This document shows, piece after piece, positions 9,953 through 29,028 of a DNA stretch of 64,000 nucleotides (the first letter of the stretch is position 1; every line of letters starts with the position of its first letter). The stretch is from Candidatus Omnitrophota bacterium (lineage in GTDB: Bacteria > Omnitrophota > Gorgyraeia > Zapsychrales > Fredricksoniimonadaceae), in NCBI GenBank assembly GCA_903901225.1, contig CAIUQE010000006.1:15369-79368 (forward strand), in the 5' to 3' direction. The position numbers and the translations under genes are program-made. A model generated the notes under the pieces. It saw only the letters and a list, made by a program, of their open reading frames with translations. It was not told where the DNA came from and did not search any database.

Positions 9953-12139
9953 ATGTCGATTAGAATGTCACTTCCTATGAATTTCGCGGACACCTTATCC
10001 AAATATAATTTTCCCGAGGAATACAAACAAGCCCTTCTCGCCACGGGGATCGTGACGCTCCATCCCCCGCAGGCCGCCGCCATTGACGCTGGCGTCCTGG
10101 AAGGGAAGAACGTCGTCCTGGCCGTACCCACGGCTTCGGGAAAAACCCTGATCGCGGAACTGGCCATGCTCAAGGCCATCTTTGAAAAGAACGGCCGCTG
10201 CCTCTACATCGCGCCGCTGAAAGCTTTGGCCAGCGAAAAATACCGGGAGTTCCAGAAAAAATACGCGCCCCTGGGCATCAAGGTCGGGATCGCCATCGGC
10301 GACCTTGACTCGCCCAGCGCCTATCTGAAGAATTACCAGATCGTGATCGCGACCGCCGAAAAAGTGGACTCGCTCCTGCGCGCGCGCTCCGACTGGTTCA
10401 TCAATGACCTGGCGGTCACGGTGTTCGACGAGATCCATGTCATCAACGACCCCTCCCGCGGCCCGACGCTCGAGATCCTCGCCACCCGCATCCGCCTGCT
10501 GAACCCGGCGATGCAGGTGCTGGCTTTGTCGGCAACGGTGGCCAACGCCAAAGACATGGCGGACTGGCTCGGAGCCGGAGCTGTCGTCAGCTCATGGCGG
10601 CCCATTCCCCTGCACGAAGGCGTTTACTACAACGGCCGGCTGACCTATGAGAACGGCAACATCCGCGTGATCAAGGAAGATGCCCCGGAAGAGGTCCAGC
10701 AGCTGGTGATGGACACCCTGCGCGGCAAAGGGCAGGCGCTGGTCTTCGTCAATTCACGGCGCTCAACGCAGGCGGTGGCCCGCGAACTTTGCCGCTGGGT
10801 GGGGACACTTCTGACACCGGAAGAGCGGGAGACGCTCAAAGATGTCGCCGCGCGCGTCGCACCACCGCTGGAAAGCACCAAGGTCTGTCAAAAACTCGCG
10901 GAGGTCGTGATCCATGGCGTCGCCTTCCACCACGCGGGCCTGCGTCCCGACCAGCGGGAAGCGGTCGAGGAGAATTTCAAAAAGAATATCATCAAGGTGA
11001 TCTGCTGCACACCCACGCTGGCCGCCGGGGTCAACCTGCCGGCCCGGCGCGCGATCATCCGCGACGCCAAACGCTACGCCTCGGGCGTGGGGTCTGTTTT
11101 CATCCCGGCTTCCGAATACAAGCAATGTGCCGGCCGCGCGGGGCGTCCCCAGTACGATGACTACGGCGAAGCCGTACTGCTCGCGAAATCCCTTTCCGAC
11201 CAGGACGCTTTGTTCGAGCGCTTTATCCTCGCGCCCCCCGAGCCCGTGATGTCCCAGCTGGCCAATGAGCACCAGCTGCGCAAACACGTCCTTGCCTCGA
11301 TCGCGGGAGGCTATGTCAATGATGTCAACGGGATGTTCGAATTCCTCAGCCACACCTTCCTTGCGCATCAGCACAAGGGCGCGAATCTGGTCGAACTTGT
11401 GGGCAACATCTTTGACTTCCTGCACAAAGAACAGTTCATCGACAAGAGCGGCTTCCGTTTTTTTGCCACGCCTTTCGGCGCGCGGGTCAGCCGCCTTTAC
11501 ATCGACCCTCTCTCGGCGCTGGTCATCCGCAAAGGCCTGGCGCGGATCGCCTCAGGCGCGAATTTTTCGTCGATCGGGATATTGCACCTGATCTGCTCCT
11601 GCCCCGACAGTGAAAAACTTTCCGTGGGCAAGACCGACCTGGAAGACCTCGAGGATTTCGGCAACAAGGTCGTTGACGAACTGGCGCTGTCGCCAGAGGA
11701 TATTGAAGCCACGCAGGACCACTACACCGCGCTGGGCGTCCTCAAGACCGTCTGGCTTTTATTGCGCTGGATGGATGAAGAAAAAGAGGAAGATATCTGC
11801 GAACGCTTCAATGTGGGCCCCGGTGATGTTTTCCGCCACACGGAATCGGCCCAGTGGCTGCTCTACGCCGCCCAGTCCATTGCCGAGGTCTACCAGTTCA
11901 AGCAACTGACCCATTTTCTCAACGGGCTCCAGAGCCGCGTGCGTTACGGGATCAAGGAAGAGCTCCTGGAACTGGCGAACCTGCGGGGCATCGGCCGCAT
12001 CCGCAGCCGCATCCTTTTCAACAAGGGCTACAAAACCATCGCCGCGCTCGGGAAACTCTCCGCCGAAGACCTGGGCCACATCAAAGGCATCGGGCTGGCT
12101 TTGGCCAAAGACATCCTGAAACAAACCGCCTCACGATGA
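9953..12139 (+). CDS. Hel308/Ski2-like superfamily-2 DNA helicase with C-terminal helix-hairpin-helix domain
   Basis: 728 aa. Q-motif and Walker A (AVPTASGKT), DEIH box, SAT motif ([10 protein letters not shown]), and C-terminal HhH ([46 protein letters not shown]). The size and domain order match archaeal Hel308/Hjm. Confidence 0.8.
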
Positions 12140-15100
12140 CGTTCCCGTCCCCGCGCCAAAGCCCATAAAATTCCGAACATCACTCACCGGCTGAACATTG
12201 ATGATCAGCGGCAGGATACCCTGGACGTCCTGGTCCAGCGCCTTGACCTGCGCCGGAGAAAGGTCGAACCTGAATGCCCCCGCGTCACCCTGGACATCCA
12301 TCCCCGCGGCCTGGTCCGTGAGGTCGATACCGCCGTCGATCTCGGCTTTAGTGGACTGACTGCGGTCCTTGCCATTCCGATGCGACACCGGTTTGTTCTT
12401 AGGACGACTCTTATAATTATTCCCCTTAGCCACCCCATTACGGCCATCTGGTTTCATTACAAGAAGGGGTTTACTTAAAGCAACCGTTGTTTTCATGTTG
12501 TTTATTTTTTGATCCTCTTGTTTACCTGCAAAGCTGGCCTCGTAGAATCTGCGAGCTGTACGCCCATTTTTCTCCATGAACTTCTCAGCCTCCTGTCCCG
12601 ATAAAGGCATCAAATACACCACATCGCCATATCGCGCACCGGACACAGCGCTCGCCTCTTGCTGGGCAAGGAACAACGCATAACGTGCCTCGCCATAACG
12701 GGAAAAAAGTACCATAAAATGCCTGAATCGCGGGTCTGACTTTTCACGCATATCTTTGACCCACTTTCGCGTAGCAACCTTCGCCTGAGAGTTGCCATTT
12801 AAAAATTCTTCAAAGGGGATTTTATTTACCTTACAAAAAGACGCCATGGCATCCCTGGCACTATCCCTTTTGCCAACAGCCTTTTGAACATTTATTACAG
12901 TTATCTTTTTGACCGAAATGCGTTCTTCCGCAGAAAGCAAAGACAATTCGATTATTCTTTTATAAGTTTCATACGTTCTTGGCCCTCCCACATTCCATGA
13001 AGCTCCCCACGTGATAATTAAGATCCGTTCTGGTGACAATTGAGGATATTCTTTACATAACTGCACAAATGATGCCACCATTGATCTGCGTGACGCAAGC
13101 CGGGTCTTTATCTTGGCTGGCATGGTCACCTGTCCTCGCAACATATCAAACGAACGGGAGTAATAATCATCGGCGGGAACATAGGGCTCCCTGGCAAAGA
13201 TATCATCCATGAACGTTAGTTGAAAGATCAACTGCAACTTGGTATCATTCATCCCCATTTTAAACGCTTTCGGAACAAGCCAATGATCCTTATCTGCCAT
13301 ATATCCCATGGCTTTCGACAGGGCAACAACATGTTTATATTCACGCTCATAACCCGCCCCTCTTAAACGCTCCAGCACTGGTATCGCGATCTTGAACATC
13401 TGTTGGGCTGTTGTGGGTTGGATCTGCAAATATCCGATGGTCGACGAGCGCTCCTTGGCATCCCGAAGGGACTGATTATTCCCGAAACCACTTTCAATGC
13501 CCGACTCCCCGATCCATATCTGGAACAAAACCCTGGAGGATATGCCCGCGGCCTTGAAATTCGGCGCCAGATCATCGTAATACCGCTGGAACATTTTTGC
13601 CATGTCATCGTACGTCGCATTTGGTTTTCCCATCATTTTGATCAGGATTTCCTGGGCGGTGTATTTCTTCGTGGGACGGCCACTCCTGCCATCTTCCAAT
13701 ATCTTGAAATTCTTTGCCACATTCTGAAGCATTTCCTTAACATCCTGCCCGGTCAACTTTTTTTCCTTCTGTTCCACAACGGCAATATGTTTCGGGATCG
13801 CCAGCTTCTCAATCACAAATTTACCGCCGACCGCCATCGCCACGGCCAACGACAACCCCAACAATATCTTTCCACCTGAAGAAGATTTATTCTCAATCCC
13901 GGATTTTATGGCCCTGGCCAATGTCGTGACAAGTTTAACAGCCACCTCCTTAAAACTCCCCTGGGCATTGTCGGGTGAACCATCCTTGACATCCATCGAA
14001 GCATCCATATCTTCCGCCACAAACCCGCCGGAGAAATATTTGCGCGGGATAAGTTCCTGGGAATAAGTATCGAGCTCTTCCTTGATCAGGCTGTAAGCGC
14101 CTTTCCGGAACGCCTCAACGTACCTGTCATAGATCTGCCGGTTCTCTTCCCGCGGATGCGCGATCTCATTGCCCTGCGTCTTGTGCCGGTCGATGAACAC
14201 CTGCGCGAACACATTGGCGTCCGTCCCTTGTATTCCCGTCACAAGCCCGGCACTGGCCATCAATTTCCTCTTGAGCCAGGCCGAAAGGACGAGCGCGTGA
14301 ACGATCTGGCGAAGCATGGCAAAATTCGCGCCTTCATTGACCTCTTTCTCCAGCACCGGTAACACAATCTCGCGCAGGACCCCTTTGGCCAGGAGGACGG
14401 CACTATTGTCAGGTACACCAGCTGCGGGCACAAGCGCATTGGCCTGCGCCGCTGTAACATCCCCGGCAGGAGCCGGGGATTCCGCCATGCCCCTCTGATG
14501 GGACATGGCTACATAGTCAGATTCCAGCATGACCTTGAGCTCAACCTTATCCACGAACGCGGATATCTGCTTGCCATCGGGGCCCAGCATCTCGTGGACC
14601 AGCGAACGGCCGGGCATGATCCAGACCTTGTTGAACGTATCGACCGGGATATCGGTGGTGCCATAAGCCTCGTAGGCGCGGCGGTACACTTCCTTCCAGA
14701 ACACCTTGCCCGTCTCACCGTCAGGATGAAGGAGCGATGCGGTCAACTGCTTGAGGATATAATCCTGGGCCAGCAGGTCGCGCCCCATGGCCGTGCGCCC
14801 GAGGTCCTCCTGGACAATCCGCTGGCTTTCATACGGTGACAGGTTGACCCACAGGTCCTTGTTCGGGATCGTCAGCGACACCAGAAAATATTTGATGAGC
14901 CGCATCGAGACATCATTGAATTCCTGTTGTGCCAGCGCCGCGCGGCCTTCATCGAACAGGAAATCCATGCGCAAAGGGTCACTCGCGTCCACGCGCATCC
15001 CCCGCAGGAGGCACGGCGCGCTCGCGGGGCTGAGCGCCACCATCTGCCCCGCGGGCGGAAGGACAAGCCCCTGGGCCATGGCCGCGGGCACGACCCCGGT

Positions 15101-15148
15101 CACGATGAACGCCAGACAGACAATGGACGCAACCATACGCCTTATCAT
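12131..15148 (-). CDS. Modular envelope protein: signal-peptide-like N-terminus, conserved ~350-aa N-module, hydrophobic segment, SLT lytic-transglycosylase-like domain, conserved C-terminal GGIDL module (paralog A)
   Basis: 1005 aa. N-terminal [25 protein letters not shown]. The N-module ([30 protein letters not shown]..., [19 protein letters not shown]) is shared with the ORFs at 22371-25583 and 25764-28748. The SLT signature is [15 protein letters not shown]...[11 protein letters not shown]. The C-terminus GGIDLTDQ...[21 protein letters not shown] is shared with the two paralogs. Confidence 0.8.
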
Positions 15149-15230
15149 TTCAGATCCTCAATGTTCGTTCGGACAACGCTACCACCATTAAAAGTATAGA
15201 CTAGTTATAGGTGTGAAAACAACGGGAGGG

Positions 15231-15258
15231 AGAATAAAACGGGAAAGCGGTTTCCCTG
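15231..15258 (-). terminator. Putative rho-independent terminator downstream of recO
   Basis: Hairpin GGGAAAGCGGTTTCCC at 15241-15256. On the minus strand it is followed by GTTTTATT. Confidence 0.45.
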
Positions 15259-15289
15259 GAAGAACAACCTTTGACGTAAAGTATTAGTA

Positions 15290-16027
15290 TTAGTCGAGAT
15301 ACTTCGCTGATTTAATATTCCGTTCTAAATGATATATTAAAAAATTATTCAGGACCTGCCTCAATTCCTGCTTCACGGACAAAGGCAGGACAAGTTTGAG
15401 GCACTGCGCCCAGGGATGCTTGCCCGCGTATACCAGCGAGGCAATGGTCCCGGGTGATAACGTAACAAGCCCCATGTCTTTCCTTTGACAACGGGGACAG
15501 ACAAGCCCGCCCTTGTACGTGCTGAACTTTTCCCGGCCCGACAACCCCCCGCCGCACTGAACGCACGAGTCGATATGCGGCTGGAATCCGGAAAGGGCCA
15601 GCACCTTGATCTGGAACAGATGGACGAGCCGTCCCACATCGCGTGCCGTCCCGAGGGCCGCGCAGTAATCCAGAAGGAGCTCATACACCGCCTCATTCTT
15701 CTGCTCGACGGGCATGATCTTGTTGACCAGTTCGCAGGCATACTCGCCCGCCGTGATGCGCCGGATGTCGCGGCGCACATCGGGAAAATATTCCTTCATG
15801 TCGCACTGGCTAACGAGGTGCACGTCACTGTTGCGGTACTGGTAATAGACAATGTCGTTGACGGAAAGCTTGTCGAGCGAAGTGTGGAACTTGCGGGGAT
15901 CCTTGCGGATGCCTTTGAGGACGCCCGTCACCTTCCCGTGCGAGCGGGTGAAGAAAAAAGCGATCTTGCTGGTCTCGCGCAGGTCGATCGAACGGAGGAC
16001 TATCCCTTCAGCGGCAATGATAGCCAT
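15290..16027 (-). CDS. recO: DNA repair protein RecO
   Basis: 245 aa with an OB-fold N-terminus and a C4 zinc motif (CVQCGG...CPRCQ). Typical RecO length. Confidence 0.85.
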   Translation of the reverse strand: MAIIAAEGIVLRSIDLRETSKIAFFFTRSHGKVTGVLKGIRKDPRKFHTSLDKLSVNDIVYYQYRNSDVHLVSQCDMKEYFPDVRRDIRRITAGEYACELVNKIMPVEQKNEAVYELLLDYCAALGTARDVGRLVHLFQIKVLALSGFQPHIDSCVQCGGGLSGREKFSTYKGGLVCPRCQRKDMGLVTLSPGTIASLVYAGKHPWAQCLKLVLPLSVKQELRQVLNNFLIYHLERNIKSAKYLD

Positions 16028-16473
16028 GACAGCATCTCATCCTCTTTACGGCGCATCAGCGCGCGTTCACCGGGCGTGGCGTCATCATGCCCCAGAAGAT
16101 GGAGGATGCCGTGCGCCACATAACGCAACACTTCACGGCGGGGCGCCTCGCCGAACAGGCGCGCGTTGCGGTACGCCTCGGCCGGGCAAATGACCAGCTC
16201 CCCGTCGAAAGGCGCACGGGCGTGGTCCCTGAGGTCAAAGGTGATGATATCCGTCACATGGTCATGCCCCAGCCGCTCGCGGTTAAGGCGGCGCATGGCC
16301 GTGGGCGTCACAAAAGCAATGGAAAGCGTCCCGGCCTTCACGCCCGAACGGGCAAGGAATGTCGCGGCAGCCTTACTGGCCGCCGGGGCCGTCAGAGGGA
16401 CTTTCGTCCGCTGTGGATTTGCTACCGTGATTTCCATTGGCCTTTTTAGGATTGGGATATTTGACGCGGACAT
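16000..16473 (-). CDS. ybeY: Endoribonuclease YbeY (rRNA maturation factor)
   Basis: Conserved HGILHLLGHDD metal-binding motif and ~150 aa size. The start codon is uncertain because the ORF overlaps the upstream gene. Confidence 0.85.
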   Translation of the reverse strand: MSASNIPILKRPMEITVANPQRTKVPLTAPAASKAAATFLARSGVKAGTLSIAFVTPTAMRRLNRERLGHDHVTDIITFDLRDHARAPFDGELVICPAEAYRNARLFGEAPRREVLRYVAHGILHLLGHDDATPGERALMRRKEDEMLSWLSLPLKG

Positions 16474-17803
16474 GGTACATGGCGGAAAGCTCGCGCGAGA
16501 ACATCCGCGTCACGGTATCGATCTCGCGCAGCGTGAGCGCGCACTCGTCAAGCTGCCCGTCGATGAATTTGTTGTTGATGACCTTGCGGACCATGTCGCT
16601 GATCCTGTTGGGCGTGTGCTCGTCCAGCGCGCGGGTGGCGCCTTCGACGGAGTCCGCCAACATGACGATCGCGGTCTCACGGGTCTGCGGCTTCGGCCCG
16701 AGATAGCGGTAGTTCTCCTCGTTCACCGATTCCGTTTCCTGCTCGATCAACGCCTTCTGGTAAAAATAATGGATCAGGCTGGTGCCATGGTGCTGCTGGA
16801 TAAAATCGATCAGCTTCGGGCTCAACTTGGCCCGGCGCGCGATGTCGACCCCTTCCTTGACGTGGTTGAGGATCACCAGGCGGCTCATCGACGGCTCAAG
16901 GTCGTCGTGCTTGTTGTCCGCCATCATCTGGTTCTCGGTGAAATACTCGGGCTTCACCAGTTTGCCGATGTCATGGTAATAGGCGCCGACCCGCACCAAA
17001 AGCGCGTTCGCGCCGATGGCATCCGCCGCGGCCCCCGCCAGGTTACTGAGGATCAGGCTGTGATGGTACGTGCCCGGCGCTTCGAAAGCGAGGCGTTTCA
17101 ACAGGGGCTGCGTGAGCGAATCCGAAAGCTCCAGCAGGCTGAAATTCGTCAGTTCACCGAAAAGCGTTTCAAAGATCTTGAGCGTCGCCAGGACCGCCGC
17201 CGCGGACAAAAGGCCGCTGGTAAAGAACGGCTCCAGGCCGTCGAGCAAAAGCTCTCTGGAAAATACCGGATGCACCAGGAAATAGCCAATGGCCTGTACC
17301 GCGCCCAGCAGGAGTCCGGCGAAAAGGATCGTGCCGCGGGTCCGCGCGCCGCTGATGGCGTAAGCCCCGGTCAACCCGCCGATAAAAACAATGATGCAAT
17401 AATCCAGCGGCATGCCGATCACAAGGCTCAGGACCGCGGCCGACATGAACGACATCGAGAACGCCAGCTGGAGGTCATTGAACAACAGCATGGCCAGCAT
17501 GGCCACGCTCGCCACGGGGATGGCGTACGGCGAAAAATGCAGGAACTCGACCATGTAATGCCCCGTGACGACAATGATCGTCAGAAGGAACCCGAGGTGC
17601 AGGAAGCGTTTGGCGTCAAGATGCCTGAAAAAAGCCAGATGGCACCCGTAAAAGGCCACAAGCAAAGGGATGAGCAAAGAAAACCCGGCCACCATGCAGT
17701 AGCCGAGCAGAATGAAAAAGAAAATACCTGCCGCGATGATGCCGTTGGTGGGTTTATTTATGATAGTGGTCATAAGCTTCAATGATCTTCTGCACCAGTT
17801 CAT
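16373..17803 (-). CDS. Membrane-associated HD superfamily phosphohydrolase (7TM-HD, PgpH/YqfF-like)
   Basis: Multiple N-terminal transmembrane helices followed by an HD domain (GAYYHDIGKL ... HHGTSLIHYF). Lies in the conserved phoH-pgpH-ybeY arrangement. The start may be the downstream Met at 17773. Confidence 0.8.
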   Translation of the reverse strand: MNWCRRSLKLMTTIINKPTNGIIAAGIFFFILLGYCMVAGFSLLIPLLVAFYGCHLAFFRHLDAKRFLHLGFLLTIIVVTGHYMVEFLHFSPYAIPVASVAMLAMLLFNDLQLAFSMSFMSAAVLSLVIGMPLDYCIIVFIGGLTGAYAISGARTRGTILFAGLLLGAVQAIGYFLVHPVFSRELLLDGLEPFFTSGLLSAAAVLATLKIFETLFGELTNFSLLELSDSLTQPLLKRLAFEAPGTYHHSLILSNLAGAAADAIGANALLVRVGAYYHDIGKLVKPEYFTENQMMADNKHDDLEPSMSRLVILNHVKEGVDIARRAKLSPKLIDFIQQHHGTSLIHYFYQKALIEQETESVNEENYRYLGPKPQTRETAIVMLADSVEGATRALDEHTPNRISDMVRKVINNKFIDGQLDECALTLREIDTVTRMFSRELSAMYHVRVKYPNPKKANGNHGSKSTADESPSDGPGGQ

Positions 17804-18701
17804 GACGGACCGTGTCCGCGGCCGTCAAGTGCACGAACTTGATCTCTTCGACGTTGCGCAGGACTTTCTCCGCCTCGATCAGCCCGATCGGCTGGCCCGA
17901 AGGAAGGTCGCTCTGGGTGACATCGCCCGTGATGATGGTCTTGGAATCGAAGCCGAGGCGCGTCAGGAACATCTTCATCTGTTCGGGGGTCGAGTTCTGC
18001 GCCTCGTCAAGGATGACGAACGCCTCGTTGAACGTGCGCCCGCGCATATACGCCAGGGGCGCAACCTCGATGATCCCCTGTTCCGCGTACTGCTCGACCT
18101 TGTCAGGCTCCAACATTTCATAGAGCGCGTCATACAGCGGCCTGAGGTAAGGCATGACCTTCTGTTCCAGTTCACCCGGAAGAAAACCCAGGTTCTCGCC
18201 CGCCTCGACGGCCGGACGGGTCAAAATGATACGGCGCACGAGGCCTTTCTTAAGCGCGTTGACCGCCATGGCCATGGCAAGATAGGTCTTACCCGTGCCC
18301 GCCGGGCCTATGCCAAAAACAATATCGAATTTCTTGATGGCTTCAACATATTCGATCTGCCCCTTGGTCTTGGGCGTGATGAGCCCTCCCTTGACCGGCA
18401 GTTCGATCTTTTCCTTGGAGAGGCGCTTGAGCCCGTCCTCTTTTTCCACCTCCGCGACACGGTTGGCATACTGGATATCGCGTTTCTTGACGCTGCGCCC
18501 GCTCTTGACGATGCCCAGCAGGTAATTGAAAAGTTCGCCGACCTGGTTGACCTTGTCATCCGGCCCGTCCACCCTCAGACCTTCCTGGATACGATAGATA
18601 CGGACACCAAATTCCTTTTCAATGGTCTTCAGGTTCTCGTCGTATTTCCCGAATAGGTGCTGGATATCGCGATTGTCGTCAAACTTGAGGTTCAGGATCA
18701 T
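17754..18701 (-). CDS. phoH: PhoH-like ATPase (PhoH/YbeZ)
   Basis: Walker A GPAGTGKTYLA. 315 aa with typical PhoH family conservation (ILTRPAVEAGE, FVILDEAQN). Confidence 0.9.
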   Translation of the reverse strand: MILNLKFDDNRDIQHLFGKYDENLKTIEKEFGVRIYRIQEGLRVDGPDDKVNQVGELFNYLLGIVKSGRSVKKRDIQYANRVAEVEKEDGLKRLSKEKIELPVKGGLITPKTKGQIEYVEAIKKFDIVFGIGPAGTGKTYLAMAMAVNALKKGLVRRIILTRPAVEAGENLGFLPGELEQKVMPYLRPLYDALYEMLEPDKVEQYAEQGIIEVAPLAYMRGRTFNEAFVILDEAQNSTPEQMKMFLTRLGFDSKTIITGDVTQSDLPSGQPIGLIEAEKVLRNVEEIKFVHLTAADTVRHELVQKIIEAYDHYHK

Positions 18702-18718
18702 GGGCTGTTATCCTTCTG

Positions 18719-19228
18719 TTATTGCGACGGTGTCTGAGATTTTTCTTCCAACGCGGGGATCTTCAACGCGACCCCCTGCTTGAGGAAATTCGGATCCTTG
18801 ATCACATCACGATTAGCGTCATAGATCTTTGTCCATTTGCTATAAGAACCATAAGACTTCTTGGCGATCTTCTGCAACGTGTCGTCTTTCTGGACAACAT
18901 AGGTCACCGGCTCGGCGACCTGCGGCACAACCTTGACAACGGGCGCGCCGCCCTGCGGCGGCGTAAAATTCTCCGCGGGCGCGGAAGGAACAGCCGTCGC
19001 CTCGGGCACGGGGCCCTGACTTTCCGCTGTTTTCGGTGCGGCTTTATCCTTCTCCACGACTTCGACGACGACCATCTTGCGGGTCTTGACGGGACCCTGC
19101 GTTGACTGGCCAGGAACACCCTGGTCCACGCGCGGCCTGTCGACGACATAAGTCCGCGTGCTCACGCACCCGGACACCGCGGCCAGCGCCGCGCATCCTA
19201 AAACTACGATGAGGATATTCCTGATCAT
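18719..19228 (-). CDS. LysM-domain lipoprotein
   Basis: Lipobox (AAVSGC), a Pro/Ala-rich linker and a C-terminal LysM (YVVQKDDTLQKIAKKSYGSYSKWTKIYDANRDVIKDPNFLKQGVALKIP). Confidence 0.75.
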   Translation of the reverse strand: MIRNILIVVLGCAALAAVSGCVSTRTYVVDRPRVDQGVPGQSTQGPVKTRKMVVVEVVEKDKAAPKTAESQGPVPEATAVPSAPAENFTPPQGGAPVVKVVPQVAEPVTYVVQKDDTLQKIAKKSYGSYSKWTKIYDANRDVIKDPNFLKQGVALKIPALEEKSQTPSQ

Positions 19229-19238
19229 AAACCGCCTC

Positions 19239-20642: not shown

Positions 20643-20655
20643 GTTAACTGCCTTT

Positions 20656-21969
20656 CTATGGCCGGACGATCCGGGCCTTGATTTCTTCCACCAGCCGGTC
20701 TTTACCCACACGCGCCTGCGCGCCGGTGACCATGTCCTTGATGCTGACCTCGCCGCTCTTCATCTCTTCCTCACCGAGCACAAGAACGATCCCCGCGCCC
20801 AGCTTGTTCGCCTGTTCAAACTGTTTTTTGACCGGCCGCCCGACGCCAAAATCCATATCCGCGGCGATCCCCTGCCGGCGCAAAAGATCAACAATACCAA
20901 AAACATCGGCCGCGAATTCCGGTTTTCCGGCGACTACAAAAGCATCCAGAGAAACTTTGCCCGCGACTGACTTTCCCTGCGCTTCGAGCGCCAGAAGGAT
21001 GCGTTCGATCCCCAGCGCGAAACCTATGGCACCGACCGGTTCAGGAAAACGGCGGTCGCCGCCATCCAGCTGTTCGATCAAGCCATTATAACGGCCTCCG
21101 GCACCAAGCGCGTCCTGCGCGCCAAGCCCAGCGTAGGAAACCTCAAAGACCGTATGGGTATAATAATCCAAGCCCCGCACCAGATGGGGCGAAACTTCAT
21201 AAATGACACCCAGTTGATCCAGGCCCTGCTTCACCTGCTCGAAATACGCGCGTCCGCTGTCCGACAAATGCCGAGTCCCGATATCAAGCCCCTGGATCAG
21301 ATCCCGGCAAGCCTGGTCCTTGGAATCCAGCAAGCGAAACACATTGCGTTCATACTGCCCCTTGCACTCATCGCTCAAATGGTCGATCTTACCTTCCAGA
21401 GCAGAGCGCAACCATTGCGCGAAATTCTTCTTGTCCTCGGCGCTTCCCAAACTATTGATCTTGAGCTTAAAGTCACTGACACCGAATGCTTTAAGAAGGC
21501 TCACGCTTAAAGCTATCATCTCCGCGTCGAGCAAGGGATGATTGGCCCCGCGGCCAATGGCTTCCGCGCCGATCTGATGGAACTGGCGCAGCCGCCCTTT
21601 TTGGGGCCGTTCACCCCGGAACATCGGAGCTATATAAAAGAACTTGGAAAGGAACGCTTCGCGGCCGATGTCATACTGGTTATACGCCCGGACCACCGGC
21701 GCTGTGCCCTCGGGCCGCAACGCAAACTGGGCGTCTTCAGCAGCATTGGTGACACGCTGGCTTTTAACCTCAAGGAGCTGTTTGTTGACGACTTCCGTCG
21801 TCTCACCCAAAGACCGCTTGAACAAGCCCGTTTCTTCAAAAACAGGCGTGCGTATCTCGCTATAATTGTATGCTTTGAAAAGCGACCTGGAGATCTGTTC
21901 GATATTTTGCCATGCGGCGATCTGGTCAGGAAGGATATCGCTGGTGCCGCGGGGAGCTGATATTTTCAC
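20656..21969 (-). CDS. hisS: Histidyl-tRNA synthetase
   Basis: N-terminus MKISAPRGTSDILP, class II motifs, a HisRS-specific region and an anticodon-binding C-terminus. 437 aa. Confidence 0.9.
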   Translation of the reverse strand: MKISAPRGTSDILPDQIAAWQNIEQISRSLFKAYNYSEIRTPVFEETGLFKRSLGETTEVVNKQLLEVKSQRVTNAAEDAQFALRPEGTAPVVRAYNQYDIGREAFLSKFFYIAPMFRGERPQKGRLRQFHQIGAEAIGRGANHPLLDAEMIALSVSLLKAFGVSDFKLKINSLGSAEDKKNFAQWLRSALEGKIDHLSDECKGQYERNVFRLLDSKDQACRDLIQGLDIGTRHLSDSGRAYFEQVKQGLDQLGVIYEVSPHLVRGLDYYTHTVFEVSYAGLGAQDALGAGGRYNGLIEQLDGGDRRFPEPVGAIGFALGIERILLALEAQGKSVAGKVSLDAFVVAGKPEFAADVFGIVDLLRRQGIAADMDFGVGRPVKKQFEQANKLGAGIVLVLGEEEMKSGEVSIKDMVTGAQARVGKDRLVEEIKARIVRP

Positions 21970-21970
21970 G

Positions 21971-22243
21971 TTATTTGATCTTCTGTTTCATCTCAAGACC
22001 GGGTTTGAACACGACCACGCGCCGGGGCGGGACCGGGACACTGGCGCCGGTGCGGGGATTACGGCCAAAACGCGCGCGGCGTTCCTTGATCTTGAAAACC
22101 CCGAAATTACGTAACTCTACCTTCTCGTTACGGTTCAGGCTCTCGACAATGACATCGAACGTTTTCTGGACGATCTTTTTCACGTCGACCTGCTTGATGC
22201 CGGTCATGTCCGTGATCTTGAGAACAATATCCTTTTTCGTCAT
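21971..22243 (-). CDS. hup: HU/IHF family nucleoid-associated DNA-binding protein
   Basis: 90 aa from MTKKDIVLKI. Conserved arm RNPRTG and FKPG motifs. The track ORF has 14 extra upstream codons. Confidence 0.85.
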   Translation of the reverse strand: MTKKDIVLKITDMTGIKQVDVKKIVQKTFDVIVESLNRNEKVELRNFGVFKIKERRARFGRNPRTGASVPVPPRRVVVFKPGLEMKQKIK

Positions 22244-22370
22244 AAGGCAAAACCTCCTCAAATTTTGTAACCATCGTACCAACAAGGCTTTAGAAAGTCA
22301 ACTATTATAAAAGACACCTGATCAGTAACGCTTCGGCAAAGATTTCGTGATCTAAAAACTCTATCAACTT

Positions 22371-25300
22371 TTACTTAACCATCAGAAATCCTTGCAAATC
22401 AACCAAAGGAACACTCGAAACAAGGACCGGCTCAAGTCCAAAAAGCCTTTCCTGAAAAACCGTGACTACGGCATCATTGACCTCAAACGACACCGCGCCG
22501 CTCGCGGCATCAACATGCAGATCGATCTTTTGAAGGTCAATACCGCCATAACTCTCCGCATTATCCTGACCCTGCTCAACTTTCGTGAATGTGACCGTCG
22601 AAGATTGACTGCCAAGACTCTGTCCCCATGCTTCATCGCCATGAGCTACAAAAATCTGTTTGAGACGACTTACCCCTTGAGGAATAACCAACGCCACTTC
22701 GACCTTATTATTCACAACATTCACTGTTTTCTTGATCCTGGGATTATCGTCTGGATTTTCATCGTCCACCAGCAAACCTACCAACACTTTTTGGGCACCA
22801 TATACCGTTAATGATACCCTGATCTTTTGACCAGCTACAACAGGAATGCCCTTGTTCATATCCAGATCAAGATAGGAAGATTTCCAATTACTCCCCGAGG
22901 CTAACCCAGGATCCCTCCCACTCAACAGATCCTGATCGCTCACATTGCCGCCCTTTGTTGGCACGGCCAACAACCGATCACTCGCAGGTGTTTCTTGCAC
23001 TGTTCCTATGTCGCCTTGTGTGACAACTTGGGTGACAACAGAATATTCTTTCCCCAGAACCGCATTGTTAATAAAATCAGCTGCCCCCTTCGTATCAATA
23101 CCAATGGCGTCATAAGCAGCTCCGTAATTCTCACCCGTAAACGGATTAACGCGCAGAATAGGATAGAGGACCCAAGAACCAATCGTGCTGCCGCGTACAA
23201 CACCAGAAGGAAACGGTGTCTTCCATCCGTGACCGGTTTGAATGCCGGCTTCAGTGGCATAATAAGCGATCAACCCATCCCCATTCTGAAGTTTTCCAAA
23301 CGCGCTTTTAGCTTGTTTTAAAAGTTCTTCCGCGACGCCCTTATATAATTTAGCCGTTGACTCATCACCTGATGCCGCACAACGAATGGCAGCTTTCTGT
23401 ACTGCCATGATGACACCGCCTGTCCACTCCACGGTTCCCAGCGGATGAACACCTCCCCGTTGGGACGTCGCGAACGAAGAAAGAGGATCCGTAAAATCCA
23501 CCAGGGTTATGGTTTTCACTTCGCCACCCGGGATTGGAGCCGTCACACGCACTAGCGACTTGTTGAGCAACTTGTTGATCTCAGCCTTGAGTTGCGGTAG
23601 CGGCAACTCGTCTCCTACCCGACCCAATAAGGTCCAGGAATATGCATCCGTGGCGAAACTGCCCGGTGAATCATTGGCGCCGCGCAAAATAACGCCGGTT
23701 GAAGGGTTATAAAGATTATTGTAAAAATACGTTTTCCCCTTATCCGCCGCTTGCTTCCATTTTGGATCGCCATACGCTTTGTACAACGCGTAAAATAATG
23801 CCACGGCATCCATGTGCGGTTCCGTAATCACAAGCCCCGGACTCCGATCACCGTCCGTTACACCTCCCTCCGCATTCTGAAGCGACAAAAGAAGATCGCC
23901 CATGGCCAGCGCTAATGGCTGATATTTCTTCGCATCAACGTTCAAGGCCGACAAACCGATCCAGGCGTTGGGTCCCGGTGTCACCTGATACTCAAGCCCC
24001 GCCATACCTGTATTAATATTGACACCATTCATGAATCCCACTAATCCGTTGATGGGCTTGGCAAGGTTAGGATTAGACAAGCCGTTCATAAAGAAATCCA
24101 TAACTGTCCTGGCATAAGCGTCTTCTCCGGCATACTTGAAAGCACCCGCCTCAACGGCCAGATCATACGCATAAGCAATATTCTCCAATTGCGGCATGCC
24201 GACATGGCTCGGAATAAGCCTGGTATTCGGATCTTCCAGTGATTCCATTGCCCGGATAGCTTGCTTATTAAAATCACCCGCATTAACATCCTTCGCTACC
24301 TGCGTACAGCCCGAGGAAGTCAAAAAGACAGAAAGAACAACTAAAAATGAGATTTTCCGTACAAAACCAATACCGGCATCCAGTAACTTCTTCTGAAAAG
24401 CCCGTGTACCCGTTAATGTTGAAATGCCGGGTCCGATGGGAGAAGCATCAATAGTTTCAATGACCAATCCTGTATCAGGTGCCTTGACTGACTGCTTCCC
24501 GTCGATTTCTAGTTTGGGATGGATCGCCATACCGCCGGCAAAATACTTGCGGGGGATCGCCTCGCCAGTATACTGGTCTTTATCTTCCCGGATATAGTTG
24601 TAAACTCCCCGCTTGAAAGCTTCGACATAATTGTTATAAATATTTTCAACAGCCGCCGGATCACCATGCAACACACCTTCGATCTTGTTCTGGTCGGCAT
24701 AAGCACGTGCCAGCAGAGAATCCTTCAACCTTGTTTTGTACCATGTGGCCAGAATAAGCGCCCGATGGATCTGTCGCAGCGGTGCAAACTGGGCGCCTTC
24801 ATTCACTTCTTTCCTGATGACTGGAAGGATCGTCTGGCGCATGGTCTCGCGGGACATTTCCTGCGCTGGAGTACTGCCAGTGGATTGGCCATTCGCCTCC
24901 ATGAGCGCATGGTCACTGTCCAGCATGACATCCAATGAATCTTCCGTAATATAGACAGCACCGCCGTTCTCATAGACCTTGGCTTTCTTTGAAACGATCC
25001 ACACTTTGCTGAAAACATCCGTAGGAATATCAGTTGTACCAAAAAGATCGTACGCCCTTTCATAAACATTTTTCCAGAACACCTTACCCGTTTCGCCTTC
25101 CGGATATATCAAGGAAGATGAAACCTGCTTGAGAATATAGTCCTGCGATAATAACTCGCGGCCCATTTGCGTCCGCCCAAAATCCGGCATAACAATACGA
25201 TCATGCTCCAGAGGAGAAAGATTGACCCACATTTCATTCTCAGGGGTCGTCAGCGCCGCAAAAAAATACCGCACCAGATGATCGACCTCTTCTTGGCCAA

Positions 25301-25535
25301 CCACTTTGGACTCTCCAGGAGACAAAAGAAATTGGAAACGGAAAGGCTCTTTAGGATCGACCTTGAGACCCTGCAAACTTGCCGGGGTCATCGGCTGACT
25401 TAGTCCAACCATATTACCTGGCTCAGGCATCGGCGTCACTTGGGCCGCCCACTGGGCAAAGCCGGCCCCGGCAGTATTCAAAAGGAACGCGCACGCCACC
25501 AGCATGCTCACAATTTTCTTAAACAACTTGCCCAT
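22371..25535 (-). CDS. Modular envelope protein: signal peptide, conserved N-module, hydrophobic segment, (alpha/alpha)6 glycoside-hydrolase-like domain, beta-sandwich region, conserved C-terminal GGIDL module (paralog B)
   Basis: About 1054 aa from MGKLFKKIVSMLVACAFLLNTAGAGFA; the track ORF extends to 25583. N-module WVNLSPLEHDRIV...MGRELLSQDYILKQ...NEGAQFAPLRQ...PRKYFAGG. Central GH-like region with ITEPHMD and SFATDAYSW, reminiscent of GH8-like toroid folds (low certainty). C-terminus GGIDLQKIDL...GLEPVLVSSVPLVDLQGFLM. GC content is lower than the flanking genes. Confidence 0.78.
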   Translation of the reverse strand: MGKLFKKIVSMLVACAFLLNTAGAGFAQWAAQVTPMPEPGNMVGLSQPMTPASLQGLKVDPKEPFRFQFLLSPGESKVVGQEEVDHLVRYFFAALTTPENEMWVNLSPLEHDRIVMPDFGRTQMGRELLSQDYILKQVSSSLIYPEGETGKVFWKNVYERAYDLFGTTDIPTDVFSKVWIVSKKAKVYENGGAVYITEDSLDVMLDSDHALMEANGQSTGSTPAQEMSRETMRQTILPVIRKEVNEGAQFAPLRQIHRALILATWYKTRLKDSLLARAYADQNKIEGVLHGDPAAVENIYNNYVEAFKRGVYNYIREDKDQYTGEAIPRKYFAGGMAIHPKLEIDGKQSVKAPDTGLVIETIDASPIGPGISTLTGTRAFQKKLLDAGIGFVRKISFLVVLSVFLTSSGCTQVAKDVNAGDFNKQAIRAMESLEDPNTRLIPSHVGMPQLENIAYAYDLAVEAGAFKYAGEDAYARTVMDFFMNGLSNPNLAKPINGLVGFMNGVNINTGMAGLEYQVTPGPNAWIGLSALNVDAKKYQPLALAMGDLLLSLQNAEGGVTDGDRSPGLVITEPHMDAVALFYALYKAYGDPKWKQAADKGKTYFYNNLYNPSTGVILRGANDSPGSFATDAYSWTLLGRVGDELPLPQLKAEINKLLNKSLVRVTAPIPGGEVKTITLVDFTDPLSSFATSQRGGVHPLGTVEWTGGVIMAVQKAAIRCAASGDESTAKLYKGVAEELLKQAKSAFGKLQNGDGLIAYYATEAGIQTGHGWKTPFPSGVVRGSTIGSWVLYPILRVNPFTGENYGAAYDAIGIDTKGAADFINNAVLGKEYSVVTQVVTQGDIGTVQETPASDRLLAVPTKGGNVSDQDLLSGRDPGLASGSNWKSSYLDLDMNKGIPVVAGQKIRVSLTVYGAQKVLVGLLVDDENPDDNPRIKKTVNVVNNKVEVALVIPQGVSRLKQIFVAHGDEAWGQSLGSQSSTVTFTKVEQGQDNAESYGGIDLQKIDLHVDAASGAVSFEVNDAVVTVFQERLFGLEPVLVSSVPLVDLQGFLMVK

Positions 25536-25763
25536 AGGAACCTCTCTTTGATAGCTTGACGTCACCAGTGCAAAGTATGCCACATATACCTTACTGCACG
25601 CAACTTTTTCAAAAAAGCTGAATGAAAGCTGAATTGACTCAAAAAAATAATTCCCATGGAAAATGGCCTCGTGAACTTTTTATACCCGCCTTATAAATCT
25701 ATTGCCGCAATGATCACATCCCGTTTTTTATGAAAAATCAAATTAAGTTCTCAGCTAGCATCT

Positions 25764-28748
25764 TTATTGATTAAACCCTAATAAAACAGGATCTGCCGAC
25801 TTGATCGCCAATATCACCGGAACAAGGCCGCTGATATGAATACGATCAAAATTTTGTTGGTTTACCGGCAACGGCACCCCATCCCCATCGCGCTTAATTT
25901 GCAAATCGAGATTGGCCTGAGACATATCAATACCACCGGGAGTAAGCTTTGCCCCATCACGAACAACCGGCATCATGTTCTGCGCAAAGTCAGCCAATGT
26001 TTCTTTAGCCAGCCTTGAAATCACTTGATCCGGCTCGCGGTCTGACTTTTTCAATGACTTTACAATATAAAATTTCATTGCATCATAAACTCCGGCGAAT
26101 CTCGCTGGCATAACAACACCTGTATAAACCAACCCCTGTAAGAATAACCATTTTGTCACTTTAAAAGCCTCGCGTTCCTCCCGCACACTCTTAACTGACA
26201 AACTCATTCCCACATTAACCGCTAGCCATAAGAAATAATTAGTGACCATAGCATTAAATGAAAACGCTTCAGAAGGCTTAATTGGCAGGCTTAATGTGAG
26301 GAAGACATATGCCATGAAATTAATTGCTGTCTGTAATGCCAAGATGTTGGGTGAATGAAACTGCTTCATATAAAATCCAAACTTGTCCACAAACACTTTT
26401 AACGTCCCCCGTTCCCATCTACGGCGCTGTTTAAACAATTCTTTAACAGTATTTGGAACCGTTGTTTGAACTTTTAACCCTGTGTAATATCCAACACGAT
26501 AGTTCTCTTCCATCAACTTGACAGTGATCAACAGATCACCCGTCTCAAAATCCGGCACCATATTCCGCAATGCATGAAGCAACACATCAGCGCGAAACAT
26601 CCCTGCAGGGCCATTGATAACCCACAATTTCCCCTGCTTAGCGGAAACACGATTCCAAAATCTCGTCCCAATATATTCAGCATACTGAGCTTTTTGTAAA
26701 ATAGATGGCTTCTCAGGTAGCAATGGTTCCATCCTAAACGTCATCCCCGCAATACCCTTGTCCTGCATATACGCCGAAGCCTGAGATATCATTTCCTGCA
26801 AAGACAATCCCGGCTTAACTAGGTTAAGATATGAATCAGAGTCAAGCAAGATGACCTTTTCTGGTAAACGCCCCTCCCGACTTAACATTTCTAGCACTTC
26901 ACGAATCGCACCTTCTTTCTTCTTATTCTCTCGCAAATGCATGACCTCGATTCCATCAGAGGCAACCCATCTATCTAATATCTCTTTTGAATTATCTGTG
27001 GAGGCATCATTTACAAAGGTAATTTTATGCAAATACCCTAATGATTTTATCCTAGTTAAAATTTCATCCAGCTTATTACCTTCATTGAACACCGGCACCA
27101 CGATATGGTAATTAGCTGGTAATGCATTCGGATAATAGGGAACATCTAAATTGACTGAATCCATGCCTTCAATATATTTAGAATCTCTTTCCAACTGCTG
27201 TGCAAGGTCAACGTTTAATGACTCACCAATTTCATGAAAAAGTAATAACTTCAGCATCTCATCCTGAAAAGACCTTGCTAACTCAGAAGCATCCTTATCC
27301 TGACCAATATCTTCTGACAACGGAACCAATAATTGCGCAGGAATTTCTATTACTTGTGGCTTCTTAACAATGGCCCCCTGCAAAGGGTTCACAACTTCGA
27401 TACCAGTAACTTTCTCCAAATCAATACCAGGCTGTTCTTTAAGCAACTCACCAAACGCTGCAGCAATAGACGGTCTAATGCCTTCAGATGACAATCGATG
27501 AACCTCTCCATTATACTGAAAGGATTCCGGATATTTAACTTCCAGTGCTTTCTCAACACCATTCTTTGTTGGTAGATTTATCATCAATCGATCTGGAGTC
27601 CTTCCGTACCCAGCGTCAACCATTACAACGGAAACATTATCCGCCTTCGCCATATCATTCTTTCCATCTACCGGAATACGATCAATTACACTCAATATCG
27701 ATGCATCACTTCCTAAAGCCTTGCCAACCCCAATCATACCGCCCGCGAAATACTTGCGTGGAATAGTCTCTTGCGTGTATCGGTCAACATCATCTTTAAT
27801 CATGTTGAAAACACCCATTTTAAATGCCTTAACATATTCCTCATATATGCGCTGATTATTTTTTGGATCCTGATCCACTCCCTTGACCTTACTCTTATCT
27901 GCATACAATTTACCCAGGATCGATTCTTTAAGAGCACGTTTATACCATGTTGCCAGAAGCATGCCACTGTAGACCTGACGCAATGGGGCAAAGTTACGGC
28001 CAGTATTCACTTCCTTTTCAATCTCTGGAATAATCACCCCGCGCATAACATCGTTAAAAATCTTTGCTGTCTCATTATCAGCCTGCGGGCTATCGTGCGT
28101 CTCATTGGCCTTCATTGCCTTATAATCACTTTCAAGCATAACCTTTAGATGATTCTCAATCACAAAAGCCTTGTTCCCTTTTTCATAGATCACAGCTCTA
28201 TCTGGCGTGATCCATACTTTATTGAACGTATCAGTCGGAATATCGGTTGTGCCAAATTTCTCATACGCTTTTGCATATACATCATCCCAAAACTTCCTGC
28301 CTAGATCCGTATCAGGATTACTTAGCGAAGCCGAAATCTGTTTAAGTAAATAATCCTGCGCCAAAAGATCGCGACCCATTTCAGTAAGGCCAAAGTTATC
28401 CGGCAATATACGATCATGTTCATACGGCGAAAGGTTCACCCACTGATCAGTGTCCGGCACCGCTAGTGCGGCCAGAAAATATTTGATAAGTTTTGAATAT
28501 TCTTCCTGTTTTTTATTCTCAGATAACAGATCATCACCACGATAAATAATAAAATCGAACTTGAAAGGATCCCCTGGATTAATAACCATGCCCTTCAAAT
28601 AGGCAGGAGTGAATAAAGAAGTCAACCCTACTGCAACCCCTGGCTGTGGCATCCACGGCATCTCAGAAGCCAGAGCTACAGGAACTCCTGGAAATAGTAA
28701 GGTTGGCAATAAAAGCACACTTGCTATCAATCGTTTTATTGCTTTCAT
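25764..28748 (-). CDS. Modular protein: signal-peptide-like N-terminus, conserved N-module, processive family-2 glycosyltransferase (cellulose-synthase/PgaC-like), C-terminal TM helices, conserved C-terminal GGIDM module (paralog C)
   Basis: 994 aa. N-terminal MKAIKRLIASVLLLPTLLFPGVPVALA, then [13 protein letters not shown]...[14 protein letters not shown]...TGRNFAPLRQ...PRKYFAGG. GT2-A region HIVVPVFNEGNK...FVNDASTDNS...LLDSDSY...NGPAGMFR...KQRRRWERG (the Q(Q/R)xRW motif), followed by three or more transmembrane helices. C-terminus GGIDMSQANL...GLVPVILAIKSADPVLLGF. Lowest GC in the window. Confidence 0.82.
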   Translation of the reverse strand: MKAIKRLIASVLLLPTLLFPGVPVALASEMPWMPQPGVAVGLTSLFTPAYLKGMVINPGDPFKFDFIIYRGDDLLSENKKQEEYSKLIKYFLAALAVPDTDQWVNLSPYEHDRILPDNFGLTEMGRDLLAQDYLLKQISASLSNPDTDLGRKFWDDVYAKAYEKFGTTDIPTDTFNKVWITPDRAVIYEKGNKAFVIENHLKVMLESDYKAMKANETHDSPQADNETAKIFNDVMRGVIIPEIEKEVNTGRNFAPLRQVYSGMLLATWYKRALKESILGKLYADKSKVKGVDQDPKNNQRIYEEYVKAFKMGVFNMIKDDVDRYTQETIPRKYFAGGMIGVGKALGSDASILSVIDRIPVDGKNDMAKADNVSVVMVDAGYGRTPDRLMINLPTKNGVEKALEVKYPESFQYNGEVHRLSSEGIRPSIAAAFGELLKEQPGIDLEKVTGIEVVNPLQGAIVKKPQVIEIPAQLLVPLSEDIGQDKDASELARSFQDEMLKLLLFHEIGESLNVDLAQQLERDSKYIEGMDSVNLDVPYYPNALPANYHIVVPVFNEGNKLDEILTRIKSLGYLHKITFVNDASTDNSKEILDRWVASDGIEVMHLRENKKKEGAIREVLEMLSREGRLPEKVILLDSDSYLNLVKPGLSLQEMISQASAYMQDKGIAGMTFRMEPLLPEKPSILQKAQYAEYIGTRFWNRVSAKQGKLWVINGPAGMFRADVLLHALRNMVPDFETGDLLITVKLMEENYRVGYYTGLKVQTTVPNTVKELFKQRRRWERGTLKVFVDKFGFYMKQFHSPNILALQTAINFMAYVFLTLSLPIKPSEAFSFNAMVTNYFLWLAVNVGMSLSVKSVREEREAFKVTKWLFLQGLVYTGVVMPARFAGVYDAMKFYIVKSLKKSDREPDQVISRLAKETLADFAQNMMPVVRDGAKLTPGGIDMSQANLDLQIKRDGDGVPLPVNQQNFDRIHISGLVPVILAIKSADPVLLGFNQ

Positions 28749-28938: not shown

Positions 28939-29028
28939 CCCGGATTTTTCATTAGAAAAATCCGCCCCGTGAATTCACCTGCTCCAAATCGTTTTGAGAA
29001 GGTGAATTCAGGTCGCGTGGCAAATCCG
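28939..29028. repeat. Left terminal inverted repeat of the cassette
   Basis: Reverse complement matches 30558-30647 with only a few mismatches or indels. Confidence 0.75.

Follow-up and report, generated by a model that had tools for sequence, protein, structure and literature searches.

Three genes on the minus strand of a 64,000-nucleotide window (the whole stretch of DNA analyzed) from a Candidatus Omnitrophota bacterium (contig CAIUQE010000006.1 of assembly GCA_903901225.1), here called A, B, and C, encode proteins that, judged by sequence comparison, are members of an undescribed family found almost entirely in the Omnitrophota. The layout that we propose for its members comprises a signal peptide, an N-terminal domain of about 320 amino acids (aa) (the N-module), a replaceable middle part of roughly 100 to >3,000 aa (the cargo) between linkers, and a C-terminal domain of about 58 aa (the C-module); the two modules together are referred to as the bracket. 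We are highly confident in the bracket architecture and in the cassette exchange of the cargo that it encloses. What is new here is the two undescribed domain families, whereas exported proteins of modular build, in which constant handles carry swappable cargo, are familiar in kind. A sequence-only reading of the window had taken A, B, and C for paralogous giant envelope proteins of a polysaccharide synthesis and export system. The three open reading frames (ORFs) are present where that reading placed them, all on the minus strand, and its view of different activities fused to one undescribed scaffold holds; at about 1,000 aa, the proteins are large rather than giant. On balance, and with moderate confidence, we favor the explanation that family members are Sec-exported carrier proteins with cassette-exchanged cargo, for which the bracket serves as a common handle.

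The shared N-module is well supported. In pairwise BLASTP comparisons over about 380 aa, A and B are 39% identical (E = 5e-83), A and C 41% (E = 4e-88), and B and C 45% (E = 3e-100); tblastn found exactly three copies in the window, and all of the conserved motif blocks listed in the sequence-only reading occur in A, B, and C. That reading could assign neither module to a known family, and the same holds after database searches: neither Pfam nor NCBIfam had a match at E ≤ 0.1 over either module of the three proteins, PDB sequences, PHROGs, and PADLOC yielded nothing for the modules, and no fold relative was found. A weak match of AcrIIA4 and phrog_28625 to the N-module of A (residues ~303 to 363, E 0.002 to 0.05) falls within a variable, helical region and was rejected as chance. 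The AlphaFold2 (AF2) model built from C (predicted local distance difference test [pLDDT] 80, predicted template modeling score [pTM] 0.79) describes the N-module as a constant alpha/beta domain, and a comparison of this model with solved structures returned no fold relative. Its top Foldseek matches (model of positions 27714 to 28673) were ClyA-family alpha-pore-forming toxins (NheA, Hbl-B, SmhA, and MakB/E) and colicin Ia; all were nonsignificant (E 0.03 to 1.8, TM-score ~0.1), and they hint only weakly at a domain with a role in membrane activity or translocation. Across 64 sequences at 45 to 70% identity, 36 residues of the N-module are invariant, including the polar residues N80, S82, E85, D107, K111, D183, E221, N223, R232, and Q233. 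The most conserved motif, WVNLSPYE, falls in a low-confidence loop of the AF2 model, which fits the expectation for a partner-binding site.

For the C-module, pairwise comparisons between A, B, and C were not significant (E 0.12 to 1.4) and tblastn of the window found nothing. We therefore built an independent profile hidden Markov model (HMM) from the C-terminal tails of 52 proteins, all from other genomes, and searched it against the 1,128 six-frame ORFs of the window. The top three ORFs were C, A, and B, in that order (E values in Table 1), followed by the next ORF at 0.41, and in each of the three the match lies at the extreme C terminus. Taken together with the pairwise N-module scores, these matches indicate that both modules are real; the shared C-terminal module of the sequence-only reading is thus upheld by the independent profile, pairwise statistics alone being insufficient. 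The C-module of B is kept in the orthologue of this protein, P0270 (E = 1.7e-7). From 80 fetched loci, the consensus reads GGIDLNaANLnLQIKRDGxGVPLPxxQQDxxxIxIxG(F/L)xPVIIxIxP, and the C-module is a constant, mostly beta domain at the very end of the protein; in a model of the N-module, linker, and C-module of another member, P0008 (pTM 0.71), its strands have pLDDT values of 65 to 84. A dockerin or EF-hand interpretation of the stretch RDGNGVPLP..QQD was rejected, as the loop departs from the Ca-binding consensus and subtype 2, to which A and B belong, lacks the loop altogether.

An exhaustive N-module profile search of 1.84 billion cluster representatives, in which the family is counted as 50%-identity clusters, returned 8,394 of them at E ≤ 1e-3; 6,830 passed the stricter threshold of 1e-30. 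The N-module is always located at residues ~1 to 400 of proteins that are mostly 600 to 2,500 aa long and range from 420 to 3,701 aa, the latter being the longest member listed; a first homologue search returned only proteins of ≤540 aa, an apparent length bias of its word index. Where organism labels are given, homologues belong almost exclusively to Candidatus Omnitrophota/Omnitrophica. At least 577 loci were found in GTDB species genomes, and the best 80 of these, that is, the 80 most similar to the N-module of C, are all from Omnitrophota or from generically labeled metagenome-assembled genomes of the Planctomycetes-Verrucomicrobia-Chlamydiae (PVC) group, with several bracket paralogues per genome. 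The housekeeping genes of the window likewise assign it to a genome of this kind. Almost every complete N-module ORF in these 80 loci (576 to >2,300 aa) ends in the C-module consensus, and ORFs with a single module are nearly all cut by the locus edge or split by a frameshift. Among unbiased representatives, the C-module lies within a few residues of the C terminus in 121 of 148, and the others look truncated. This joint occurrence across loci and representatives makes the bracket a family-wide architecture rather than a peculiarity of three paralogues. Identities of the two modules, taken over HMM match columns, also covary (Spearman 0.59 over 15,931 pairs). Family genes are scattered among housekeeping genes, often in same-strand tandem arrays such as that of B and C. 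Only three family loci were found in 2.9 million viral contigs, and a phage or mobile-element origin of the family is therefore unlikely. Searches of the Omnitrophota literature within reach turned up no account of the bracket.

A survey of the cargo fused to the N-module, which the sequence-only reading had suggested, found the same bracket around many unrelated domains. Pfam annotation of the middles of 50 members identified Response_reg, Glyco_transf_5, phosphoglycerate kinase (PGK; E = 1e-107), several methyltransferases, HATPase_c, RNA_pol_A_CTD, cNMP_binding, metallo-beta-lactamase, PRTase, UDPGP, GH26, and DRAT, and 51 full-length sequences (46 representatives, P0008, P0270, and the three window proteins) added DnaJ (J-domain), LMW phosphatase, NTP_transf_3, HTH_23/28, and TraK_N. 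The majority of cargos had no Pfam match, and the annotated domains are mutually unrelated. A 1,894-aa member without a transmembrane segment (L051:3545-9229) carries both a UDP-glucose pyrophosphorylase-like domain and a full PGK (Pfam, 1e-107), with a second PGK-like stretch recognized by eye and unscored, all between a signal peptide-led N-module and a C-module; it is a conspicuous example of enzymes of central metabolism within a seemingly exported protein.

Closely related brackets rarely share their cargo. Only 3.2% of the pairs with N-modules at least 75% identical share ≥100 aa of BLAST-detectable cargo, and P0204 and P0226, with 96% identity in the N-module and 84% in the C-module, enclose unrelated cargo. 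Gene A records such an exchange in its composition: the G+C content at third codon positions (GC3) is 0.745 for the signal peptide and N-module and 0.757 for the C-module, in line with most housekeeping genes of the window (0.69 to 0.79; HisRS 0.64), versus 0.521 for the cargo, with a minimum of 0.39 at residues ~700 to 800, as expected of a foreign cassette inserted between ends native to the genome. In B and C, GC3 is low throughout (0.50 and 0.40 for the whole genes), so that these genes look recently acquired as a whole. Cargos are thus exchanged as whole cassettes, through recombination, horizontal transfer, or both, and their sources include both exported and cytoplasm-type proteins. Given this generic cargo and its exchange, the three carbohydrate-type cargos in the window look like a sample of a very broad repertoire, and the bracket looks like a general-purpose handle rather than a dedicated part of a polysaccharide machine.

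In most members, the linkers carry a recurrent motif, D-x-A-M (with variants D-x-A-Q). Compared with shuffled sequences, it occurs 122 times versus 3.2 expected in the 100 aa after the N-module, 67 times versus 1.3 expected in the 40 aa before the GGID of the C-module (typically 5 to 15 residues upstream), and 206 times versus 13.7 expected inside the cargo, that is, with a 38- to 50-fold enrichment at the cargo junctions and a 15-fold enrichment within the cargo. It is not enriched in the N-module (4 versus 4.8 expected) or in neighboring genes (14 versus 16.3 expected), and it is absent from the housekeeping proteins of the window. D-x-A-M therefore appears from its distribution to be a new, family-specific linear motif that marks domain boundaries, and it is a candidate processing site.

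The proteins begin with textbook Sec leaders, which speak for export of the family. A canonical Sec/signal peptidase I signal peptide was called in 167 of 180 members (93%), with an n-region averaging 3.0 K/R and 0.2 D/E residues, an h-region of about 12 residues, and an AxA-type c-region (AQA or AYA followed by Q); the leaders that the sequence-only reading had seen in A, B, and C are of this family-wide type. No transmembrane-like segment was found between the N- and C-modules in 126 of the 180 members. Signal peptides and transmembrane segments were called by simple hydropathy and composition rules rather than by dedicated predictors.

The cargos of the three window proteins differ in how far they can be assigned. 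The glycosyltransferase family 2 (GT2) synthase core recognized in C by the sequence-only reading was borne out by three Pfam models (PF00535, 7.3e-13; PF13641, 2.2e-8; PF13632, 6.7e-8) and by the motifs NDAS, DSDS, and QRRRW, which can be read directly in the sequence. This core is PgaC/NodC-like, scoring far below the equivalog cutoffs (TIGR03937, 85 bits versus 422; TIGR04242, 27.6 versus 550), and has a GtrB-like match in PHROGs (2.7e-9). Two to three transmembrane-like peaks follow the GT2 domain, and none was found between the N-module and the GT2 domain, where the top hydropathy peak is 1.24 at residue 337; the topology thus differs from that of BcsA, PgaC, and NodC in lacking a transmembrane segment before the glycosyltransferase domain. 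No relatives of this cargo were found in the loci whose N-modules are 71 to 75% identical to that of C.

Seven homologues of the B cargo were found. P0270, at 72% identity, has the bracket, and P0271 and P0273 to P0275 are stand-alone proteins without either module, of which P0273 and P0274 start with an obvious signal peptide. The hydrophobic, lipobox-like segment that B retains at residues 403 to 421 is located where the stand-alone homologues have their signal peptide or N-terminal hydrophobic segment, so that an entire gene for a pre-protein must have been taken up between the two modules. By analogy, the segment of A at residues 428 to 446 is probably what is left of the signal-anchor of an exported protein acquired in this way. 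The (alpha/alpha)6 core proposed for B has weak support: B matched the glycoside hydrolase family 8 (GH8) enzyme CelA at E = 0.84, a profile of nine B-cargo homologues matched YihS in PDB at E = 1.9, and GlcNAc_2-epim matched four of the nine homologues (best 0.0015), and GH127 matched at 0.17. Every one of these matches is subthreshold, and all fall in six-hairpin (alpha/alpha)6 families, so that B is plausibly an (alpha/alpha)6-like putative glycanase. The SLT lytic transglycosylase core that had been read into A has no statistical support: the domain (PF01464) had no Pfam match in A at E ≤ 0.1 and neither the whole protein nor a 224-aa segment matched PDB sequences at E ≤ 10. What remains is a resemblance of motifs (ESGF, a further stretch after 17 intervening residues, and ASWNVGG) to family 1 lytic transglycosylases, with spacing about 5 residues longer than usual. 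Among 5.8 billion proteins, the only homologue of this cargo is the same protein from a sibling assembly, and it is possibly a lytic-transglycosylase-like orphan. The three proteins may share an envelope-related role.

Table 1. Genes A, B, and C and their parts in the window (B residues in GTG numbering)
Feature	Residues	Window positions	Strand	Description and basis
Gene A		12131..15148	-	1005 aa; signal peptide, N-module, relic anchor (probable), orphan cargo, C-module
A N-module	26-380	14009..15073	-	BLASTP and tblastn; GC3 0.745, housekeeping-like
A hydrophobic segment after N-module	428-446	13811..13867	-	Hydropathy
A cargo	447-935	12344..13810	-	GC3 0.52, minimum 0.39; lytic-transglycosylase-like motifs only
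A C-module	~939-1000	12149..12334	-	Independent HMM, E=2.6e-10; GC3 0.757
Gene B		22371..25535	-	1054 aa from M17; signal peptide, N-module, relic lipobox-like signal peptide, (alpha/alpha)6-like cargo, divergent C-module
B N-module	44-355	24519..25454	-	BLASTP and tblastn
B internal hydrophobic segment ending LTSSGC	403-421	24321..24377	-	Hydropathy
B cargo	422-1008	22560..24320	-	Homologues; weak six-hairpin signals
B C-module, divergent subtype	~1011-1068	22380..22553	-	Independent HMM, E=0.0087
Gene C		25764..28748	-	994 aa; signal peptide, N-module, 200-aa linker, GT2, 2-3 transmembrane-like helices, C-module
C N-module	28-345	27714..28667	-	AF2 model, pLDDT 80, pTM 0.79
C GT2 catalytic domain, QRRRW	547-840	26229..27110	-	Pfam
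C C-module, canonical subtype GGIDM...IKRDGDGVPLP...GLVPVILAI	~936-992	25773..25943	-	Independent HMM, E=1.1e-22

The ORF of gene B was listed as 22371-25583 (1070 aa, GTG start); judged by its signal peptide and by the orthologue P0270, the true start is probably the ATG at 25535 (M17). B and C are direct neighbors, and A sits 7 kb away from them with eight housekeeping genes between. A is flanked by a Hel308-like helicase gene and RecO, and B-C by HU and a low-GC ATPase gene; the flanks as a whole contain the helicase, RecO, YbeY, PhoH, AspRS, HisRS, HU, DnaE, and this defense-candidate ATPase. Gene A and the convergent helicase gene (9953-12139, plus strand) overlap at their 3' ends by 9 nucleotides (12131-12139), leaving no room for a terminator between them, and scans for promoters and terminators around A, B, and C were uninformative, with results near shuffle expectation. 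Next to gene C, an 87-nucleotide inverted repeat with 98% complementary arms (28938-29024 and 30565-30651), each of which holds its own 26-nucleotide palindrome, encloses the ATPase gene (29164-30420, minus strand), whose AAA_14 + DUF4143 product matches the PADLOC candidate defense family PDC-S01 (6e-84); repeat and gene together look like a small mobile or invertible element. A near-identical contig of 40,286 bp from ENA sample ERZ1426617 has the same RecO/helicase context around gene A, which is called there as two genes, one of 687 aa (identical to residues 1 to 687 of A) and one of 238 aa, suggesting a disrupted allele or an assembly error.

How the bracket might work can be set out as follows. 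The cleavable signal peptide would carry each member out through Sec, and the bracket would then act as the common handle, with the N-domain, probably together with the C-domain, serving either as the part that a shared envelope machinery recognizes or as one that attaches to a common structure of the envelope or of a target. All cargos would thereby share the same fate, staying attached to the surface or being passed to another cell, and the D-x-A-M linkers might be processed along the way. A sorting or delivery function of the bracket is put forward more tentatively than the carrier architecture, as a nearly balanced call. Omnitrophota are widespread, uncultivated, ultra-small bacteria for which dependence on other microbes, or predation on them, has been proposed, and retention or delivery of cargo would fit such a host-dependent or predatory lifestyle. 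It is possible, though rather unlikely, that proteins with the bracket are the substrates of a sorting or delivery pathway peculiar to the Omnitrophota and so far undescribed. In such a pathway, the N- and C-modules would form a recognition or translocation unit that takes any cargo, folded cytoplasm-type enzymes and regulators included, across the outer envelope and perhaps into host or prey cells, D-x-A-M sites would release the cargo, and the thousands of cassette-swapped members would constitute an effector repertoire.

Several points weigh against the exported-carrier explanation. No secretion, sorting, or receptor component is linked to the family, and its neighbors are unconserved: across the 80 loci, no conserved neighbor or secretion apparatus was found, and the best neighbor cluster occurred in 7 of 80. 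The localization of the proteins is deduced from their leaders and hydropathy alone. Much of the annotated cargo would need ATP, S-adenosylmethionine, nucleotide sugars, or DNA, and PGK, methyltransferases, GT2, response regulators, helix-turn-helix domains, and the J-domain would be inactive outside the cytoplasm unless they reached that of another cell. About 30% of the members have at least one transmembrane-like segment between the modules; if these truly span the membrane, the N- and C-modules are not always on the same side of it. The topology of C, a membrane-embedded GT2 that would follow an exported N-module without a transmembrane segment, appears paradoxical. A, B, and C also carry few D-x-A-M motifs, having degenerate copies only (DNAQ393 in A, DLAQ514 and DFAQ920 in C). 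The same paradox, a signal peptide or transmembrane segment combined with cytoplasm-type domains, has been described for long Omnitrophota proteins (West-Roberts 2023; 2026 complete-genome preprint).

This clash between cytoplasm-type cargo and export is the main argument for delivery into another cell, and it is equally the main argument for a membrane-tethered organizer in the cytoplasm. In that case, the N-terminal segment would be an uncleaved anchor or buried, the N-module, most of the cargo, and the C-module would stay in the cytoplasm, and the bracket would cluster enzymes and regulators at the inner membrane face or on a large assembly, with A and B exposing only their cargo. The mostly cytoplasm-type cargo and the GT2 of C, which follows the N-module with no transmembrane segment between, are accounted for in this way, and only a cytoplasmic N-module would leave the internal signal peptide-like segments of A and B in their native in-to-out orientation; the 2026 preprint likewise interprets many of the long proteins of the phylum as anchored in the inner membrane, with their domains in the cytoplasm. 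We nevertheless consider such an organizer improbable, because the leader resembles a cleaved Sec signal peptide, with its ~12-residue h-region and its AQA or AYA sites, in 93% of the members, and because the K/R-rich n-region would by the positive-inside rule place the N terminus inside and the N-module outside. Slightly less probable again is a self-processing polyprotein, in which the N-module would be a cis-acting maturation or protease domain that cuts the D-x-A-M linkers and frees cargo and C-module after export, much as effectors are released from MARTX toxins by their cysteine protease domain or viral polyproteins are cleaved at x-A/x by Ser/Lys proteases. The motif is indeed enriched exactly at the cargo boundaries and in multidomain cargo and not in the N-module or neighboring genes, and many polar residues of the N-module are invariant, but the N-module resembles no peptidase in either sequence or fold. 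Moreover, A, B, and C have few or only degenerate copies of the motif and P0270 has none, so that processing cannot be essential for all members, and the motif might instead cap the linkers structurally.

A surface-variation system akin to antigenic or adhesin variation, with brackets that would mainly be homology arms and anchoring ends, an exposed middle varied through recombination of paralogues with each other and with incoming DNA, and any enzymatic function secondary, would agree with the cassette exchange between conserved ends, the tandem arrays, the GC3 mosaic of A, and the disrupted copy of A in the sibling assembly. It is nonetheless a decidedly remote prospect, as the N-module is conserved at the protein level and not merely in its DNA (the 36 invariant residues noted above), and some cargos are intact enzymes such as PGK, which argues for selection on function. 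Least probable of all, and in our view very unlikely, is the modular trans-envelope exopolysaccharide machine of the sequence-only reading, formed by A, B, and C with the two modules as its assembly scaffold. The GT2 of C with QRRRW and C-terminal transmembrane-like helices, the weak (alpha/alpha)6 signals in B, the lytic-transglycosylase-like motifs in A, and the adjacency of B and C on one strand speak for it. The same bracket, however, surrounds PGK, response regulators, methyltransferases, and other unrelated cargo among the 8,394 representatives, with cargo shuffled independently, and A lies apart among housekeeping genes with an orphan cargo of different GC3. The comparison with BcsA/BcsZ also fails, as the flanks of A, B, and C hold housekeeping genes and the ATPase rather than partners of Bcs or Pga type (BcsB/BcsC, PgaA/PgaB, or a cyclic di-GMP receptor), no outer membrane export, co-polymerase, or PilZ component or conserved neighborhood accompanies the family genes across the 80 loci, the SLT domain has no statistical support, and the topology of the GT2 is inconsistent with that of BcsA/PgaC. 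A role of the bracket as a common handle of exported carriers thus remains the explanation that we prefer.

Exported carriers with a common handle can be compared with several known systems. Closest in overall logic are the MARTX toxins, which likewise have constant N- and C-terminal ends, effectors shuffled by recombination, and processing sites in their linkers. These toxins, in contrast, are type I secretion system (T1SS) substrates of 3,500 to 5,300 aa without a Sec signal peptide and with glycine-rich repeats and a cysteine protease domain, whereas Pfam found neither these repeats nor such a protease domain in A, B, and C, with no match to HemolysinCabind or any other RTX family, and there is no similarity in sequence or fold between the two groups. 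TpsA/CdiA proteins and polymorphic toxins combine a Sec signal peptide and an N-terminal secretion domain of ~250 to 300 aa with an exchanged payload, and paralogues are common. They differ in their two-partner secretion (TPS) beta-helix, which has its own Pfam family, and in that the variable part is the C-terminal tip; the TPS (Haemagg_act) profile and a beta-helix fold found no match in A, B, or C, no TpsB gene, normally the direct neighbor in such systems, recurred next to the family genes in the 80 loci, and the bracket-family cargo is mostly not toxin-like. Type IX secretion system (T9SS) substrates share the Sec signal peptide, arbitrary cargo, and a small, beta-rich domain at the very C terminus, but that domain is an Ig-like beta-sandwich of 70 to 100 aa, the system belongs to Bacteroidota, and no N-domain is obligatory; the T9SS models TIGR04183 and TIGR04131 gave no NCBIfam match over the C-module at E ≤ 0.1. 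LapA-type T1SS adhesins, which are retained at the surface, also have a long variable middle flanked by a constant N-module and a constant C-terminal signal, yet they lack a Sec signal peptide and come with RTX repeats, a T1SS signal, and LapG, LapD, and LapE nearby, none of which were seen for the bracket family. Within the same phylum, the giant and long proteins of Omnitrophota (the Archaeovorin and dockerin types) resemble bracket proteins in combining a signal peptide or transmembrane segments with methyltransferases, HATPase, starch synthase, and response regulators, but neither the bracket nor D-x-A-M is described in the papers on them (West-Roberts 2023; 2026 preprint).

The bracket provides a sequence-defined handle by which thousands of Sec-led proteins with exchangeable cargo can be identified, and two large domain families, plus the linear motif D-x-A-M, are ready for curation in Pfam and NCBIfam. 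Localization, processing, and cargo exchange thereby become directly testable. Should the bracket prove to be a signal for sorting or delivery, it would mark out the secretome or the effector repertoire of an entire phylum and would explain why enzymes of cytoplasmic type carry signal peptides, a puzzle already noted for the giant proteins of Omnitrophota.

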